Shown: in pieces, positions 3,775 to 23,445 of the stretch
Numbering within the stretch: position 1 is the stretch's first letter
How the letters are laid out: each line of letters starts with the position of its first letter
DNA from: Sphingomonas sp. RT2P30
GTDB taxonomy: Bacteria; Pseudomonadota; Alphaproteobacteria; Sphingomonadales; Sphingomonadaceae
DNA: 64,000 nt
Assembly (NCBI RefSeq): GCF_036663795.1
Contig: NZ_JAXOJP010000007.1
Span: forward strand, 93,882 to 157,881
Reading direction: 5' to 3'
The notes under the pieces: generated by a model
The model's input: the letters and a program-made list of their open reading frames with translations, nothing else
Database searches by the model: none
What the model was told of the DNA's origin: nothing
Program-made: the position numbers and the translations under genes

Positions 3775-3874
3775 ATGTAATCCTTGTCGGAAAGACGGCC
3801 CCCGCCGTGAGCGGGATATGTGGGGCAGCCTGTCGGGCGGCAATGCCAGGCGCGAAATATTCCGGCGACGACCG

Positions 3875-4219
3875 TCAGGGAAAGCGGTGCGTGACTTCAA
3901 TCAGGCCGTGAATCGCGGCGTTGAACGCTCCGAGATCTTCGGCGGGAATCCAATATTCCTCATGCGCTCGGCCGCCGGCCTGTTCGACACGGTAATTTGC
4001 GAGAAAATCTTTGCCGACCGCAAAGCGCGTGACGAAGCCAGCGCCGCTCGCCGGTACGTTCCAGTCGCGTGCGATCTTGATCGCATAGGCTTCGGTGGTG
4101 ACGGGGTAGAAAATCGGCTGCCCGGGAAGGCGCGGCGGGAAGCCGGTCATGCCGCATTCCTCGATCAAGGCCAGCTCCTTGGGTCCCACCGGCCGCCAAA
4201 GAGTGACGGTGTCGCTCAT
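3875..4219 (-). CDS. Conserved hypothetical protein; ATGA-coupled to the proA stop
   Basis: 114-aa ORF from MSDTVTLWRPVGPKELALIEE. Globular-looking composition. The 4-nt start/stop overlap with proA suggests co-translation. Family not recognised. Confidence 0.45.
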   Translation of the reverse strand: MSDTVTLWRPVGPKELALIEECGMTGFPPRLPGQPIFYPVTTEAYAIKIARDWNVPASGAGFVTRFAVGKDFLANYRVEQAGGRAHEEYWIPAEDLGAFNAAIHGLIEVTHRFP

Positions 4220-5570: not shown

Positions 5571-6665
5571 ATGATATCGACCGCTTCGATGAGCGGGGGA
5601 ATCGAAGCAGCGGGCGATATCGCCACCGGGGCCTTGCTGGGCCGCGCAATCGAGCCGCGCGCCGGCGAGGCAGCGGGCGGCGCGCACGGGCATGGCTTGT
5701 GTCTCAATTGCGGCACGGCACTGATCGGCGATTATTGCCATGCCTGCGGCCAGGGCGGCCATGTCCACCGCTCACTCGCCTCGATCGGGCACGACCTGCT
5801 GCACGGCGCGTTCCATTTCGAGGGCAAGATCTGGCGCACGCTGCCGATGCTGGTGCTGCATCCCGGCGCGCTGACGCGGCGCTATATCGCTGGCGAGCGC
5901 GCGCGCTTCGTCTCGCCGCTGGCGCTGTTCCTGTTCTTCGTTTTCCTGATGTTCGCGACGATCCACAGCTTTGGTGGCGAGTTGGAAGAGGTCGATGCAA
6001 CGCCCGCGGCACGGGTCGAGCGCATGGCCAAGTTCGACAAGGTCATCGCGGCGTCCGAGGAGCAACTCAAACGCGCCGAACAGAGCCAGGCAAAGGGCGG
6101 CCCGGATGCCCCCGACGCCGACGACATCGCGACCCTGCGCGGCACGATCGACGGCCTGAAGAAGACCCGCGATACCTTCGCGACGAGCAAGGACGGCAAG
6201 GAGCGCGTGACCTTCAGCACCTATCTCACCGGCTGGGCACCGCTCGACAAGGGCATCGCCAAGGCCAATGCCAATCCGGGTCTGGCGCTCTACAAGCTGC
6301 AGTCGAGCGCCTATAAATATAGCTGGGCGCTGATCCCCATTTCGGTGCCGTTCGTCGCCTTGCTGTTTCTGTGGAAGCGGCGCTACAAATTGTACGACCA
6401 CACCATCTTCGTCACCTACAGTCTGTCGTTCATGCTGCTGCTGGTGACGGTTTTCACGCTCGGCCTGGAAATTCACGCGCCAGGATGGATCCTCGGCCTG
6501 ATGCTCGGCTTCGGCCCGCCGGTGCATCTCTTCGCGCAGCTGCGCGGTGCCTATCAGCTGCGCAAACGCTCCGCCTTGTGGCGCACCGTAGCGCTGAGCA
6601 TGTTCGGCTTCGTTGCGCTCATGCTGTTCATAACGCTGCTGCTCGCGCTCGGCCTGATGGGGTGA
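5571..6665 (+). CDS. DUF3667-like membrane protein with an N-terminal zinc-ribbon
   Basis: CLNCGTALIGDYCHACGQ zinc ribbon followed by about five hydrophobic helices. The start is chosen at MISTASMSGG; the upstream extension is Arg-rich. It lies 45 nt upstream of the Hsp70 gene on the same strand. Confidence 0.65.
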   Translation: MISTASMSGGIEAAGDIATGALLGRAIEPRAGEAAGGAHGHGLCLNCGTALIGDYCHACGQGGHVHRSLASIGHDLLHGAFHFEGKIWRTLPMLVLHPGALTRRYIAGERARFVSPLALFLFFVFLMFATIHSFGGELEEVDATPAARVERMAKFDKVIAASEEQLKRAEQSQAKGGPDAPDADDIATLRGTIDGLKKTRDTFATSKDGKERVTFSTYLTGWAPLDKGIAKANANPGLALYKLQSSAYKYSWALIPISVPFVALLFLWKRRYKLYDHTIFVTYSLSFMLLLVTVFTLGLEIHAPGWILGLMLGFGPPVHLFAQLRGAYQLRKRSALWRTVALSMFGFVALMLFITLLLALGLMG

Positions 6666-6709
6666 TCGCACCGCGCCCGGCTCGGGGCGCGGATCAGGGA
6701 TAATCGCAG

Positions 6710-8407
6710 ATGATCATCGGTATCGACCTTGGCACCACCAACAGTGCCGCCGCGGTGTGGCGCGACGGCGCGGCGCAGCTGATTCCCAACCGGTTGGGTC
6801 ATGTCCTGACGCCGTCCGCCGTCAGCGTCGATGCCGACGGCACGATCGTCGTCGGGCTCGCCGCGCGCGAGCGCCAGGCGCATGACGCCGCCAATACCGT
6901 CACCGCCTTCAAGCGATATATGGGGACGCGGCGCACCACCAAGCTCGGCCGTCACAGCTTCACCGCCGAGGAACTGTCGGCGATCGTGCTGCGCTCCCTG
7001 AAGGAGGATGCCGAGGCCTTTCTCGGCGAGCCGGTGACCGAGGCGGTGATCACCGTGCCGGCCTATTTCAACGACAAGCAGCGCAAGGCGACCCACCGCG
7101 CGGGCGAACTGGCGGGGCTGAAGGTCGAGCGGCTGATCAACGAGCCGACCGCTGCCGCGCTGGCCTATGGTATCCAGAATCTCGACAGCGAATCGCGCTT
7201 CTTCGTGTTCGATCTCGGCGGCGGCACCTTCGACGTGTCGATCGTCGAGATCTTCGAGGGCGTGATCGAGGTGCGCGCCTCGACCGGCGACAACCGGCTC
7301 GGCGGCGAGGATTTCAACGACCTGCTGATCAACCTGATGCGCGACCATGTCGGCGCGGCGTGGCAGGCCGACCGGCTTGATGACGCGCTGCACCAGAAGA
7401 TCCGCGAACAGGCCGAGCGCGCGCGGCGCACGCTGAGCAGTGCCGGGTCGGCGACGATGACGGTGACGTGGCGTGACGAGACGCACAGCATGGATGTCGA
7501 TACCGCCACGTTCGAGGCGGCGGCCGCGCCGATGCTCGAGCGGTTGCGCGAGCCGGTGCTGCGCGCGCTGCGTGACAGCGAGATCAAGCCCGACGCGCTG
7601 TCGGAGATCATCCTGATCGGCGGGGCGACGCGCATGCCGCTGGTGCGGCGCGCGGTCGCGCGGATGTTCGGGCGTTTTCCCAATGCCAGCATCAACCCCG
7701 ACGAGGCGGTCGCACTCGGTGCGGCGGTCCAGGCCGGGCTCAAGGCCCGCGATGTGGCGCTGAAGGAAGTCGTCGTGACCGATGTCTGCCCCTATTCGCT
7801 CGGCGTCGACATGTCGCGTCACCTGCCGGGCGGCGGCGTCGAGACGGGCATCTTCGCCCCGATCATCGAGCGCAACACCGTCATCCCGGCGAGCCGCATG
7901 CACAGCTTCGGCACGATGCATGACAATCAGGCGGTGGTCGAGTTCGGCATCTTTCAGGGCGAAGCGCGCGCCGTCGCCGACAATGTCGAGATCGGCCGGA
8001 CCAAGGTGCGCGTCCCGCGCGGTCCAGCCGGACAGGCCGTCGATGTGCGCTTCTCCTACGACGTCAGCGGCCTGCTCGAGGTCGATATTGTCGTGCAGCA
8101 GACCGGCGAAAAGACCACGTTGGTGATCAACGACGATGCCGCCGGCGACGACGCCGCACTGGCCGGGCGGCGTGCGGCGCTCGCCGCGCTCAAGACGCAT
8201 CCGCGCGACAGCGAGGCCAATCGCGCGGCGCTGGCGCGCGGCGATCGTGCCTATGAGAATGCGCTGGGCGACCAGCGCGCGATGATCGACATGTTGATCA
8301 GCGAGTTTCGCGTCGCGATCGACGGGCAGGACCCGCGCGTCATCGAACAGGCGCGCGCGCGTTTCCAGTCCGCGATCGACGCGATCGAGGGCGAAACCTT
8401 TTTGTGA
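6710..8407 (+). CDS. Hsp70-family chaperone, HscC-like (short-lid DnaK paralogue)
   Basis: IGIDLGTTNSAAAV, DLGGGTFDVSIV and EIILIGGATRMPLV Hsp70 ATPase motifs. At 565 aa the substrate-binding lid is shortened, as in HscC. Its stop overlaps the J-protein start (GTGA). Confidence 0.85.
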   Translation: MIIGIDLGTTNSAAAVWRDGAAQLIPNRLGHVLTPSAVSVDADGTIVVGLAARERQAHDAANTVTAFKRYMGTRRTTKLGRHSFTAEELSAIVLRSLKEDAEAFLGEPVTEAVITVPAYFNDKQRKATHRAGELAGLKVERLINEPTAAALAYGIQNLDSESRFFVFDLGGGTFDVSIVEIFEGVIEVRASTGDNRLGGEDFNDLLINLMRDHVGAAWQADRLDDALHQKIREQAERARRTLSSAGSATMTVTWRDETHSMDVDTATFEAAAAPMLERLREPVLRALRDSEIKPDALSEIILIGGATRMPLVRRAVARMFGRFPNASINPDEAVALGAAVQAGLKARDVALKEVVVTDVCPYSLGVDMSRHLPGGGVETGIFAPIIERNTVIPASRMHSFGTMHDNQAVVEFGIFQGEARAVADNVEIGRTKVRVPRGPAGQAVDVRFSYDVSGLLEVDIVVQQTGEKTTLVINDDAAGDDAALAGRRAALAALKTHPRDSEANRAALARGDRAYENALGDQRAMIDMLISEFRVAIDGQDPRVIEQARARFQSAIDAIEGETFL

Positions 8408-19027: not shown

Positions 19028-20050
19028 TCAGTTGAACAGCCTGTCCTGTGTAGAAGCAGGCGGGTTCAGCCCGAGATGCTTCCACCCGCCGGCATTGAGG
19101 CAACGGCCGCGTGCGGTGCGCGCGATCAGGCCGAGCTGGATGAGATAGGGCTCGATCACTTCCTCGACCGTGTCGCGCGGTTCGCTGAGCCCGGCGGCGA
19201 GCGTTTCCACGCCGACCGGGCCGCCGCGATAGATGTCCGCGATCATCGTCAGGTAACGGCGATCCATCGCATCGAGCCCGAGCCCGTCGACCTCGAGCCG
19301 GTTGAGCGCGGCATCGGCGGCGGCAGCATCGACCAGCTCATGCCCGGCGGCATGGGCGAAGTCGCGCACACGGCGCAACAACCGCCCGGCGATGCGCGGC
19401 GTGCCGCGTGCGCGGCGGGCAATCTCCTGCGCGCCGTCGGGCGAGATGGCGAGATCGAGCAGCGACGCGGCGCGCGACACGACGCGTTCGAGCTCATCGA
19501 CGGTGTAGAAATGCAGCCGCACCGGGATGCCGAAACGATCGCGCAGCGGCGTGGTCAGCAGCCCCTGGCGCGTCGTCGCGCCGATCAGCGTGAAGCGCGG
19601 CAGGTCGATCCGCACCGAGCGCGCCGACGGCCCCTCGCCGATCATCAGATCGAGCGCGCGATCCTCCATCGCCGGGTAGAGCACTTCCTCGACCGCCGGC
19701 TGGAGGCGGTGGATCTCGTCGATGAACAGCACATCGCCATCCTCGAGATTGGTCAGCAGCGCGGCGAGATCGCCCGACTTGGCGATCACCGGCCCCGAAG
19801 TGGCACGGAAGCCGACGCCCATCTCGCGCGCGACGATCTGCGCCAGCGTGGTCTTGCCGAGCCCGGGCGGGCCGAAGAACAGCACATGGTCGAGCGCATC
19901 GCCGCGCGCCTTGGCCGCCGCGATGAACACGCGCAGATTCTCGCGCGCCGCCTTCTGCCCGACGAAATCGTCGAGGCTCTTGGGGCGCAGCGCGGCATCG
20001 ACATCTTCGCTGCGGCGTGCGGGGGTGATGAGGCGGTCGGTGTCGGTCAT
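19028..20050 (-). CDS. ruvB: Holliday junction branch migration helicase RuvB
   Basis: AAA+ motifs ([22 protein letters not shown]) and the RuvB winged-helix C-terminus. Confidence 0.95.
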
Positions 20051-20349
20051 TCGTTGCGTCCAAGCGCGCGCGGTGCATTGCGACTATGATGCAAGATGCG
20101 GATGATCAGCACGCCTTGGTCTATCGGGCGATAATATATGCGATGGGAGCGATAGGCGAAGCCACGGATGTCCTCACCGAGATCGCTCTCGGCAGCACCC
20201 GCCGACGTCAAATCCGCAAGCATCGCGAGCGCCTCGCGTAGTCCGCTAATATAGGCACTTGCAACCGTCGGTCCAAAGATCGTCTTGCTGTAAATCCTGA
20301 TATCCCGGACATCATCACGCGCCGCCGGCGCCAGGCGAAGCTTAGGCAC
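20047..20349 (-). CDS. parE: Type II toxin, RelE/ParE family
   Basis: 100-aa ParE-like protein ([21 protein letters not shown]...[22 protein letters not shown]). Its stop overlaps the ruvB start by 4 nt. Local GC ~57%. Confidence 0.8.
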
Positions 20350-20587
20350 GTAACTCCGGATCCTCGGCGATCACCTCGTCGAACACTTCCAGGCCGTCGC
20401 GCTCGATCACGCCCGATGCGAGACCCTCGTCGATCATCGCGCGAATCCAGCGCCGGTCATTCTGCTCCTGATCGTGCCTGATCAAATCGCGCAGATAGTC
20501 GGCCGCGTCGGCATAGGTGCCTTCGGAAATCCGCGATTCGACCCAGCTTTGCAGCGCCGCCGGCATGGAGATGGTGAGTTGCGTCAT
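20342..20587 (-). CDS. parD: Type II antitoxin, ParD family (RHH/COG3609)
   Basis: 81-aa protein (MTQLTISMPAALQSWVESRISEGTYADAADYLRDLIR), typical of the ParD antitoxin family. Overlaps the downstream toxin by 8 nt. Confidence 0.75.
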   Translation of the reverse strand: MTQLTISMPAALQSWVESRISEGTYADAADYLRDLIRHDQEQNDRRWIRAMIDEGLASGVIERDGLEVFDEVIAEDPELRA

Positions 20588-20832
20588 ACCGCGAATATAA
20601 CCCGATGCGGGCGATGCGCCAATGCGCGCTTGCCTAGCCGGCGTGTAGCGCGGTTTGCGCGCGCGGTGGCGAAACGCTCAAGCTCGCGCCCCTTGGCGCG
20701 GGAAGCTCGGCCGATCTTCTGCGCCTTCTGCGCTACGAAATCGACGAGGGTCCTGGGGCGCGGCGCGGCGTTGAGGTTTTTGTTGCTGCCGGCGGAAATC
20801 ATGAGCCTTTCGGTGTCGGTCATTTCATCCAC
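20584..20832 (-). pseudogene. Decayed duplicate of the ruvB 5' end
   Basis: The 82-aa ORF starts [39 protein letters not shown]. RuvB starts [39 protein letters not shown] remnant Walker A (RLGKRALAH vs GLGKTTLAQ) follows, then the frame ends at the parD start. Confidence 0.5.
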
Positions 20833-21176
20833 CCATCTTCGTCATAGGGTGGACGGAATACGCGAGTAACGCCCTCTTCGGGCTGCAACATCAAAATCAC
20901 AGTCTCCGGCGCACCCCACCGTCGAGACATAACAAATGCCGCGAATTCATCTTCGACATTCATGTAGTTCACACCGGCACACCAAAGCTCGAATTGAGGG
21001 TGCTTACTCCCTCCCGCTCGGTCGGAAACCTCCAAGAGGGCAGCGCCGTGACAGTGATCCTTGAGCCATACCTGAATCTCGGCGACGGGGTCGCTCACGA
21101 TCACAAATTCACCATTAATAAGCTCATCGACGCACGGACAACTGGCGACTAGCGCAACGCCCGTCACTTTGCTCAC
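20820..21176 (-). CDS. Hypothetical protein (118 aa) in a low-GC segment between ruvA and the ruvB remnant
   Basis: ORF with ~52% GC against ~68% surroundings. Contains Cys/His (CPCVDE...HCHG) and no recognisable family. Start overlaps the ruvA stop. Confidence 0.45.
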
Positions 21177-21766
21177 TTCGCCGCCTTGCGCAGCGCCAGC
21201 CGCACCAGCGCATCGAGACTCGCGCCCGCGCCCAGTTCCTCCTCGGCCGCACCCACGGCGGCATTGGCTTCTGCCGGGCGGAAGCCGAGGTTGAGCAGCG
21301 CGGAGACCGCATCAGACGCGGCGCTGCTTGCCGCCGCGACCGGGGTGACCGAGCCGAGAATCACCCCGCCGGCCTTGTCCTTCAACTCGCGCACGATGCG
21401 TTCGGCGAGTTTGGGGCCGACGCCGTTGGCGCGGCCGATCATCGCCTTGTCCTGGGCGGCGATGGCGCGGGCTAGTTCGGTCGGTTCGAGCACCGAAAGG
21501 ATCGCCAGCGCAACGCGCGCGCCGACGCCCTGTACCGCAGTGAGCAGGCGGAACCAGTCGCGCTCGTCGGGCCGGGCGAAGCCGACGAGGCGGATGAAGT
21601 CCTCGGCGACGAGCATCTCGGTGAACAGCGTCGCCGCTTCGCCGACGGGGCCGATCGCCGCGAGCGTCTTGGCCGAAGCGCCGACGAGATATCCCACGCC
21701 GCCCACGTCTATCACGGCATGGTCGATGCCGGTCGATTCAAGCCTGCCCTTGAGATGCGCGATCAT
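21173..21766 (-). CDS. ruvA: Holliday junction DNA helicase RuvA
   Basis: Starts MIAHLKGRL. Has the OB fold, two HhH motifs ([17 protein letters not shown]; [14 protein letters not shown]) and a C-terminal RuvB-binding domain. Confidence 0.9.
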
Positions 21767-21784
21767 TTGCGCGTGCTAGCAGTT

Positions 21785-21916
21785 CCTCCCCGGTACGGGG
21801 AGGGGGACCGTGCGAAGCATGGTGGAGGGGGCGCGCCACCAGCGTAGCGCTTGCGGCGCTCCCCCTCCACCACGCGCTGAAGAAGCGCGCGGTCCCCCTC
21901 CCCGTTCCGAGGAGGA
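21785..21916. repeat. Cluster of G/C-rich palindromes (CCTCCCC/GGGGAGG family) in the ruvC-ruvA spacer
   Basis: A 7-bp stem (cctcccc ggtac ggggagg), then a 16-bp inverted repeat GGTGGAGGGGGCGCGC/GCGCTCCCCCTCCACC with one mismatch and a ~19-nt spacer, then a further gcggtccccctcccc motif. Read directly from the sequence. Confidence 0.55.
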
Positions 21917-21926
21917 ATTAGGAGGA

Positions 21927-22412
21927 TCAAGAAATGCGCCGCGCGCTCGCCAAATGATGCGCGTGGCAGATCGCCACCGCCAGCGCATCGGCGGCGTCGG
22001 GGCCGTCGATCTTCACGCCCGGCAGCAACCGCGCGACCATGGCGTGGACCTGGGCCTTTTCGGCATTGCCGGTGCCGACCACTGCCTTCTTGACCAGCCG
22101 GGCGGCATATTCGCCGGGCTCGATCCCGGCGCGTGCGACCGAGCACAGCACCACGCCGCGCGCCTGGCCGAGTTTGAGGGTCGATTGCGGGTTGGCGTTG
22201 ACGAACACTTCCTCGACCGCCGCCGCATCGGGCGCATGATCGACGAGCAGCGCGCCGAGCATCATGTCGAGATGCGCGAGCCGGCGGGCGAGCGGCGTGG
22301 CGCTGTCGGTCTTGAGCCGGCCATTGGCGAGATGCGACAGCCGGTTGCCCTCGGCGCGGATCAGCCCCCAGCCTGTCGTACCGAGGCCGGGGTCGAGGCC
22401 GAGGATGATCAT
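21927..22412 (-). CDS. ruvC: Crossover junction endodeoxyribonuclease RuvC
   Basis: Start [18 protein letters not shown] (RNase H-fold catalytic Asp). The longer 217-aa ORF-track version is a low-complexity extension. Confidence 0.9.
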
Positions 22413-22701: not shown

Positions 22702-23445
22702 TCAACCCAGCTTCTCCATCACGGCGTCGGAGACTTCGTAATTTCCCCACACGGTCTGCACGTCGTCGTCGTCGTCGAGCGTGTCGATCAGCTTGAACAG
22801 CAGCGCGGCGTCGGATTCACCGACATCGACCATCACCTGCGGGCGCCAGGCGAGTTTGGCGCCTTCGGCCTCGCCGAGCACCGGGGTCAGTGCCTTGGCG
22901 ACTTCGTGCAGGTCGCCCTGGGCGGTCCAGATTTCGTGGCCGTCCTCGCTCGACTGCACGTCCTCGGCACCCGCTTCGAGCGCGGCCTCGAACACCTTCT
23001 CGGCATCGCCGACGCTCGCGGGGTAAGTGATCAGCCCCATGCGGTCGAAGGCGTGGCTGACCGAGCCGCTGGCGCCGAGATTGCCGCCATTCTTCGACAC
23101 CGCGGTGCGCACATTGGTCGCGGTGCGGTTGCGATTGTCGGTCAGTGCCTCGATGATGAGCGACACGCCGCCCGGGCCGAAGCCCTCATAGCGAATTTCC
23201 TCGTAATTCTCGGCGTCGCCGCGCGTCGCCTTGTCGATCGAGCGCTGGATATTGTCCTTCGGCATCGACGCCGCCTTGGCGGTGTTGACCGCCGCGCGCA
23301 GCCGCGGGTTCATGTCCGGATCGGGCAGCCCCATCTTCGCCGCGACGGTGATTTCGCGGCTCAGCTTGGAGAACATGCCCGAGCGCTTTTTGTCCTGCGC
23401 GCCCTTGCGGTGCATGATGTTCTTGAACTTGGAATGGCCTGCCAT
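22702..23445 (-). CDS. yebC: YebC/PmpR family DNA-binding transcriptional regulator
   Basis: [16 protein letters not shown]-terminus, full length 247 aa. Conserved neighbour of ruvC. Confidence 0.9.

Follow-up and report, generated by a model that had tools for sequence, protein, structure and literature searches.

Composite ParD/ParE insert of Sphingomonas sp. RT2P30 at an apparent recurrent cassette hotspot between ruvA and ruvB

We examined a 64,000-nucleotide (nt) stretch of the Sphingomonas sp. RT2P30 genome (contig NZ_JAXOJP010000007.1, positions 93,882 to 157,881), hereafter the window, and within it a small island that separates the repair genes ruvA and ruvB. Judged by sequence comparison with related loci, the ruvA-ruvB junction in Sphingomonas is a recurrent insertion hotspot, and RT2P30 provides a composite example of a common pattern. 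Our best explanation, which we consider probable, is that small cassettes are gained, swapped and lost between these core genes, and that RT2P30 carries a composite of two alleles. The insertion includes a credible ParD/ParE module, probably co-expressed with ruvB.

An earlier note on this DNA had described four tightly overlapped open reading frames (ORFs) between ruvA and ruvB, on the same strand as both. Layout, sequence and Pfam matches bear this out. In the minus-strand order, ruvA is followed by orf118, a decayed ruvB 5' stub, parD, parE and ruvB:

21173..21766, minus: ruvA (197 amino acids, aa; Pfam RuvA_N, HHH_5 and RuvA_C)
20820..21176, minus: orf118 (118 aa, GTG start)
20722..20823, minus: ruvB 5' stub, a copy of ruvB nt 1-103
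20623..20721, minus: filler of ~100 nt, from the stub to the parD promoter
20594..20622, minus: parD promoter-like site (TTGGCG, 17 nt, TATATT, then 6 nt to the parD ATG)
20342..20587, minus: parD (81 aa), ribbon-helix-helix antitoxin candidate
20047..20349, minus: parE (100 aa, GTG start), toxin of the ParE/RelE superfamily
19028..20050, minus: ruvB (340 aa), intact (Pfam RuvB_N, E = 2e-79; AAA_lid_4; RuvB_C)

Each ORF overlaps the next. The 4-nt overlap of ruvA and orf118 is GTGA, comprising the ruvA TGA stop and the orf118 GTG start. The sequence ATGA forms the 4-nt overlaps between orf118 and the stub (13 nt if the upstream GTG of the stub is used), between the stub ORF and parD (20584-20587) and between parE and ruvB, where the parE TGA lies within the ruvB ATGA. 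The overlap of parD and parE is 8 nt (junction GTGCCTAA). Guanine plus cytosine (GC) content is 0.596 across the island, compared with 0.69-0.70 in ruvA and ruvB. Hence, the insert is lower in GC, as previously claimed, although the figure then given (~52-57%) describes the lowest 200-nt windows (0.525-0.58) and not the mean. GC at third codon positions (GC3) is 0.59 for orf118, 0.78 for parD and 0.61 for parE, compared with 0.85-0.88 in flanking host genes. Because of this difference, we read the composition of the island genes as foreign.

The comparison used a RuvA-based scan of one genome per GTDB species representative. This returned 80 Sphingomonas-group loci, or 81 with the window. The ruvB gene was within the retrieved flank in 74 of the 80, and four further loci had no ruvB within 6 kb. 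ORFs in the gap were called by cross-locus clustering with GC3, plus Pfam. The assumption that ruvA and ruvB are normally adjacent does not hold. The genes overlap, by 4 nt, in 6/74 loci (L023, L049, L060, L065, L070 and L076), and the gap is below 100 nt in 10/74 (these six and four more). Remaining gaps run from 168 nt to >4 kb, and the full range is from -4 nt to >4 kb. The cargo found was as follows:

ParD/ParE: 10 loci, plus the window
HicB-like/HicA: 6 full pairs and 2 partial
DUF5397 with a Cas2/VapD-like partner: 3 loci
GFA: 11 loci
2-hydroxyacid dehydrogenase: 11 loci, on the opposite strand
Other cargo (RcnB-like, DUF4337, ParA-like ATPase, GH10, epimerase, glycosyltransferases and several unknowns): various loci

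Hence, insertion at this place is not unusual: ten other species carry ParDE there, and HicAB or another toxin-antitoxin-like pair occupies the junction in ~11/74 loci. The DUF5397 module (L019, L037 and L058, about 6596-7092) encodes first a DUF5397 protein (62-72 aa) and then a Cas2/VapD-like one (~93 aa), and is likely a toxin-antitoxin pair. Flanks are conserved across loci (RuvA 70-98% and RuvB 84-99% identical), yet cargo is unrelated even among close relatives. The closest relatives, with RuvA 94-98% identical, have at least three different cargo sets. For instance, L001 and L006 share ~90% nt identity with the window in their flanks (window RuvA is 98% identical to that of L001 in aa, and RuvB 98-99% identical to those of L001 and L006), yet contain a different ParDE allele. 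The L002 and L005 junctions have GFA-based cargo. The earlier note had named, as its refutation, a universal four-ORF arrangement with uniform GC. This was not seen; among the 81 loci, the arrangement in the window is found only in RT2P30.

The insert had also been taken for a single island of ~1.1 kb. Alignments instead divide it into two parts with different relatives. The first, orf118 plus stub, is collinear as one block with orf118-ruvB of L046 (64% over 462 nt), where the orf118 stop overlaps the ruvB ATG, just as orf118 overlaps the stub in the window. The second, parD-parE-ruvB, forms a single alignment block with its counterpart in L033, L062 and L047; for L047, L001 and L006, homology sets in at the parD -35 region. 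We conclude, on the strength of these alignments, that the island is two hotspot cassettes (orf118 plus stub, and parD-parE) joined by a putative recombination scar. Neither the island nor its immediate surroundings contain an integrase, transposase or tRNA, and only orf118, the stub, parD and parE lie between the core genes. Since the gene overlaps are 4 nt, there is no room for attC-like sites. The insert has the features of neither an integrase-mobilised island nor an integron cassette.

The stub opens with ATGACCGACACCGA, identical to the real ruvB start, and encodes MTDTERL..., compared with MTDTDRL... in RuvB. Identity to ruvB nt 1-103 is 78% (blastn E = 9e-17 with the ruvB of RT2P30 itself and 2e-18 with that of L006), and the nearest match is ruvB of the window's own clade. 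Every blastn match ends at stub nt ~103. The ratio of nonsynonymous to synonymous substitution rates (dN/dS) is ~1.0 over 36 codons and indels are present; because of this ratio, we regard the stub as a pseudogene fragment. Its reading frame remains open through the filler and stops in the parD ATGA. The filler has no homolog in any locus. Stubs of ruvB or ruvA were sought in the 80 other loci and none was found, so the stub is unique to the window; numerous weak matches traced to two queries in the wrong frame (L011 and L079) were set aside. It looks like a recombination scar. An extension of the stub to ruvB nt ~215 was also considered (nt 105-215, with a Walker-A-like GGCTAGGCAAG). This was rejected; 271/2000 shuffles and 8/140 genomic controls reached the score.

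These features suggest how the composite might have formed. Cassette 1 would be orf118, with nt 1 to ~103 of a ruvB still joined to it. Cassette 2 would be a parD-parE type II module, with its own promoter, in which parE ends in the A-TGA-CC of the ruvB start. The stub would be the scar of their joining. One option is that one crossover fell in ruvB/ruvA homology and that the other joint was illegitimate. Alternatively, a single crossover may have inserted a circular fragment with a copy of the ruvB 5' end. Neutral decay of the upstream ruvB copy would then have followed. Transcription of ruvB would come both from ruvA, by read-through, and from the parD promoter.

The site where cassettes meet ruvB is itself conserved. 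The context of the ruvB start, [AGT]TGACCGAC, is kept in almost every locus, and the TGA inside the ruvB ATG-ACC is the ruvA stop in all loci where ruvA and ruvB overlap. In ~40 loci, [AG]TGACC at the ruvB start provides the stop for ParE, HicA, orf118, GFA or others. At all ParDE loci, the ORF just upstream of ruvB ends in the ruvB start, with an overlap of 4 or 8 nt. This ORF is parE, except in L024 and L034, where an additional ORF takes this place. Because the TGA is embedded in the conserved ruvB start, the parE/ruvB overlap is best read as an ancestral coupling site that has been re-used, and not as specific to the island. We infer that RuvB translation is coupled to ParE termination, which would occur at the same site that couples RuvA to RuvB where their genes overlap.

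We now consider the ParD/ParE module. ParE is a clear member of the RelE/ParE family according to its profile match with Pfam PF05016 (ParE_toxin; 54.6 bits with a cutoff of 23, E = 1.7e-14, model positions 1-88/89). PDB matches are 7YCS (E = 1e-9), ParE1 3KXE_A (E = 4e-8) and 7R5A (7e-8). ParD is a borderline candidate for the ParD family. It reaches 43.3 bits with TIGR02606 (E = 2.7e-11), just below the cutoff of 46.2, and 18.7 bits with PF03693 (ParD_antitoxin; E = 0.0024), below the cutoff of 21. The match to Caulobacter ParD1 (PDB 3KXE_C) is weak (E = 0.003). The gene layout is that of a type II toxin-antitoxin system: antitoxin then toxin, on the same strand, with an 8-nt overlap and a predicted promoter of their own. 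Comparison with L033, L062 and L047 indicates purifying selection, with dN/dS of 0.10-0.21 for parD and 0.14-0.36 for parE, and with synonymous sites near saturation. We read the module as intact, with ParE above its Pfam cutoff, ParD just below two cutoffs, and database homology present. PADLOC defence models gave no match (E<=1e-3) for orf118, ParD or ParE, nor for seven unknown cargo proteins, and BLAST found no plasmid match for the parDE cassette. Judged by its sequence features, the pair is most likely an intact chromosomal module of a selfish or addictive kind, which helps to retain the cassette; a dedicated role in repair is improbable.

The ParDE allele of L001 and L006 shares 56% (ParD) and 33-36% (ParE) aa identity with that of the window. 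At these two loci the module (6635-7175, same site) looks chimeric, with a window-like ParD and a ParE of the L014/L024/L066 subtype, the latter 33-34% identical in aa to window ParE. This combination hints at module shuffling.

Next, we turn to transcription. The promoter-like site before parD is one of 2 sigma-70-like sites in 5.2 kb (0.6 expected), and the only strong one near the island. The pattern TTGG-N17/18-TATAnn-N6-ATG is kept in 9/9 aligned parDE loci, and the rest of the spacer is not conserved. This indicates that the predicted site is probably a functional promoter. Since it is set 6 nt before the ATG, the parD mRNA is probably leaderless. A second sigma-70-like match (20248-20275, minus, TGGACC-16-TATATT) is inside parE; it may be due to chance or may act as an internal promoter for ruvB. 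No minus-strand terminator was predicted between ruvA and ruvB. It had been proposed that ruvB translation now depends on reading through the toxin-antitoxin module. Because parD has its own conserved predicted promoter, ruvB would not depend on read-through only.

The locus had further been labelled an SOS operon. The SOS box of alphaproteobacteria has the form GTTCN7GTTC, and Caulobacter induces ruvCAB as part of its SOS response (PMC9578287). In 14.7 kb around the window locus, no exact LexA box was found on either strand, and so none of the form GTTC-N7-GTTC lies near ruvC, ruvA or ruvB. The label is therefore unproven in RT2P30. Elsewhere, an exact GAAC-N7-GAAC box occurs directly upstream of ruvB, within the ruvA-ruvB gap, in 21 related loci:

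16-23 nt upstream of ruvB: L002-L004, L007, L008, L021, L022, L027, L040, L042, L050, L051, L053, L057, L064, L079
62-77 nt upstream of ruvB: L054, L059, L061, L074, L077

In S. pruni NBRC 15498 (L004), for example, the box is GAACAGGTAGGGAAC. Boxes of this kind are typically embedded in a conserved promoter-like layout, CTCGACA/GTGACA-N17-TAGGGAAC-N4-6-[AG]TG start. Related loci contain 49 exact boxes in 939 kb, of which ~24 are at the ruvB-proximal position. This suggests that, in many Sphingomonas species, a separate promoter under SOS control drives ruvB, probably giving a leaderless transcript. The box is upstream of ruvA instead in 4 loci (L005, L012, L033 and L036), and upstream of the last cargo gene in three, including the orf118 homolog of L045. 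The ruvB-proximal box is present in 0/21 toxin-antitoxin loci and 21/53 others (Fisher p=3e-4, uncorrected for kinship).

This distribution raises an alternative. The autoregulated parD promoter could have replaced a LexA-controlled ruvB-proximal promoter, tying RuvB to the state of the toxin-antitoxin pair. Under stress, degradation of the antitoxin would derepress parDE-ruvB and, because ParE toxins poison gyrase and damage DNA, a link to the Holliday-junction motor would be adaptive. We regard this as unlikely. The mutual exclusion of box and toxin-antitoxin pair, the concentration of exact boxes near ruvB, the ending of the upstream ORF in the ruvB start at all ParDE loci, and the documented SOS induction in Caulobacter all agree with it. 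However, the exclusivity may be trivial, since a proximal promoter has no space where a cassette extends right into the ruvB start, and the Fisher statistic ignores kinship. Nor is the coupling specific to toxin-antitoxin pairs; GFA and orf118 share the same overlap. That gyrase is the target of window ParE is an assumption, and the four loci with the box upstream of ruvA keep a LexA site there instead. In its fullest form, to which we give low credence, the junction would be a dedicated cassette-exchange site with two mutually exclusive ruvB control modules, one a leaderless LexA-boxed promoter and the other a leaderless autoregulated toxin-antitoxin promoter, with the toxin coupled to RuvB. 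Stress control of the Holliday-junction motor would have been taken over repeatedly, and the stub would be a preserved intermediate of the swap.

A further possibility is that the toxin-antitoxin pair and orf118 are inactive remnants, tolerated since read-through expresses ruvB. A pseudogene stub and ~100 nt of orphan filler in the same islet fit such decay, as does a ParD below curated cutoffs. We nonetheless consider it improbable: parD and parE are full length, overlap by 8 nt in canonical order and evolve under purifying selection (dN/dS 0.10-0.36), the parD promoter is conserved, and orf118 keeps near-invariant residues and a confident predicted fold. Least plausible is acquisition of the whole 1.1-kb segment in a single step, as a site-specific integrative element at the ruvB 5' end with the two ATGACCGACACCGA copies att-like, for although stub-parDE lies between direct repeats of the ruvB start and GC is lower throughout, there is no integrase, transposase or tRNA, the halves have different relatives (L046 for orf118 plus stub; L033, L062 and L047 for parDE-ruvB), the stub is nearest to the ruvB of its own clade and not to a foreign one, and no plasmid or phage record matches the cassette.

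Several points weigh against our preferred reading of a hotspot with turnover of small cassettes. A microhomology suggested at the junction, CTGGCGCA/TTGGCG, was not significant in a shuffle test with genomic controls and was rejected. ParD falls just under both curated cutoffs (TIGR02606 and PF03693). Synonymous divergence (dS) is 0.9-2.8 for parDE, compared with 0.42-0.71 for ruvA/ruvB in the same genome pairs, which implies that parDE alleles predate the species splits or were exchanged. The promoter, leaderless start, co-transcription and translational coupling were all inferred from sequence. Finally, hotspot counts are per GTDB species representative and uncorrected for kinship.

Comparison with known systems places the module among chromosomal ParD/ParE pairs of alphaproteobacteria, such as ParD1-ParE1 of Caulobacter crescentus (PDB 3KXE). 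Antitoxin-toxin order, overlap and small sizes (81 and 100 aa) are shared, the window pair matches 3KXE chains A and C, and ParD matches TIGR02606 ('antidote_CC2985'). Unlike ParD1-ParE1, the window pair sits between ruvA and ruvB, with the toxin stop within the ruvB start context, and its promoter geometry implies a leaderless parD mRNA. Horizontal-transfer hotspots are flanked by core genes, and turn over by homologous recombination in those flanks. The ruvA-ruvB site resembles them in its conserved flanks, unrelated cargo, lack of integrases and, in the ruvB stub, a likely recombination scar. Unlike them, it lies within an operon and separates genes for two subunits of the same machine, and its cargo is mostly tiny (0.3-1.5 kb) and usually fused into translational coupling signals.

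We found no paper describing a ruvA-ruvB hotspot, or genes or toxin-antitoxin modules between ruvA and ruvB. To this extent the novelty claimed in the earlier note stands. It does not extend to toxin-antitoxin pairs in SOS repair operons, for which E. coli dinB-yafN-yafO-yafP is a precedent; there, a type II pair is co-transcribed in an SOS DNA-repair operon (PMC2814082, PMC3105422). As in the window, the pair lies within a repair or damage-tolerance operon, and the content of the dinB operon varies between strains. The differences are that YafO is an mRNA interferase, from another toxin family, that yafNO is downstream of the repair gene, which is thus not translationally coupled behind a toxin, and that dinB-yafNOP has a demonstrated LexA box, whereas none was found in the window. 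In Streptococcus pyogenes, phage-like SpyCI chromosomal islands occupy the mutL 5' end (PMC4129442). Like these, the window insert is at the 5' end of a DNA-repair gene, between the gene and upstream transcription signals. SpyCI, however, is large, bears an integrase, excises dynamically and switches repair on and off. The window insert has no integrase or sign of excision, and ruvB stays expressible.

A homolog search matched the orf118 product, at 100% identity, to U1839_09790, annotated as a hypothetical protein in Sphingomonas sp. RT2P30. Looking up the exact sequences of orf118, ParE and ParD returned no record. When 1.84 billion cluster representatives were searched with a profile, 330 clusters were recovered at E<=1e-3, with the family motif MSxVTGV...GGxKHPQ...NYF.EDEF...PENVVL..QPE.G.TRV.RP. 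The family is without a model in Pfam, PHROG, NCBIfam and PADLOC. The window member retains the near-invariant residues and has a confident predicted fold (AlphaFold2, AF2; 60-sequence alignment). We conclude that orf118 is a real gene, and belongs to an uncharacterised conserved family with a predicted ferredoxin-like fold. Family members are directly upstream of ruvB in three Sphingomonas loci. In L045 (4877-5245) and L046 (7029-7382), the homologs abut ruvB with the same ATGA overlap. An exact LexA box is present at L045:4790, 87 nt upstream of the orf118 homolog. Because this box precedes orf118-ruvB of L045, the family may be damage-inducible in some species. In L081 (Mesorhizobium, 3787-4001), the homolog is divergent from an MmcB-like DNA-repair gene, and the spacer contains a palindrome, GTTCACGGTTTGAAC, which is not a canonical direct-repeat LexA box. 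In L084 and L085 (4001-4312), a family member is found among small same-strand ORFs, flanked by ribonucleotide reductase and helicase/5'-3' exonuclease genes. Since phage early or replication regions have a similar layout, phages and bacterial chromosomes appear to share the family. BLAST of orf118 against phage records gave no match.

Upstream of ruvA, the neighbouring genes are as follows; their identities, taken from recognised motifs, are presumed:

22702-23445, minus: yebC-like gene
about 21927-22400, minus: ruvC

The ruvC-ruvA spacer contains a 135-nt nested palindromic element (21783-21917), present as a single copy in the window. Its outer arms are 32 nt (91% complementary) and its inner arms 28 nt (86%). 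A related palindrome is found elsewhere in L033, so the element may be a mobile hairpin of the repetitive extragenic palindromic (REP) or miniature inverted-repeat transposable element (MITE) type. The element yields chance Rfam miRNA matches and a spurious LexA-box match with 1 mismatch; the latter, at 21782-21796 upstream of ruvA and the sole near-match in the vicinity, was rejected since it lies in a palindrome arm. An Rfam scan of 18.5-23.6 kb found nothing real, and there was no repeat signal in the insert.

The ParDE pair itself is ordinary. Its setting is both unusual and recurrent. Across the genus, toxin-antitoxin and other mini-cassettes would have landed repeatedly in a conserved two-subunit repair operon, where the cargo is built into the signal that couples translation of the operon itself. 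The ruvB stub would be a rare preserved scar, showing how cassettes may stack by recombination anchored in a flanking core gene. The work also flags orf118 as an uncharacterised small-protein family, with 330 clusters and no Pfam family. Toxin-antitoxin cassettes and the ruvB-proximal LexA box never co-occur in our sample, and this leads to a testable idea, that some lineages have swapped SOS control of ruvB. Replacement of LexA control by toxin-antitoxin promoters in those lineages is unproven. It can be tested, and is the most interesting open reading of these sequences.

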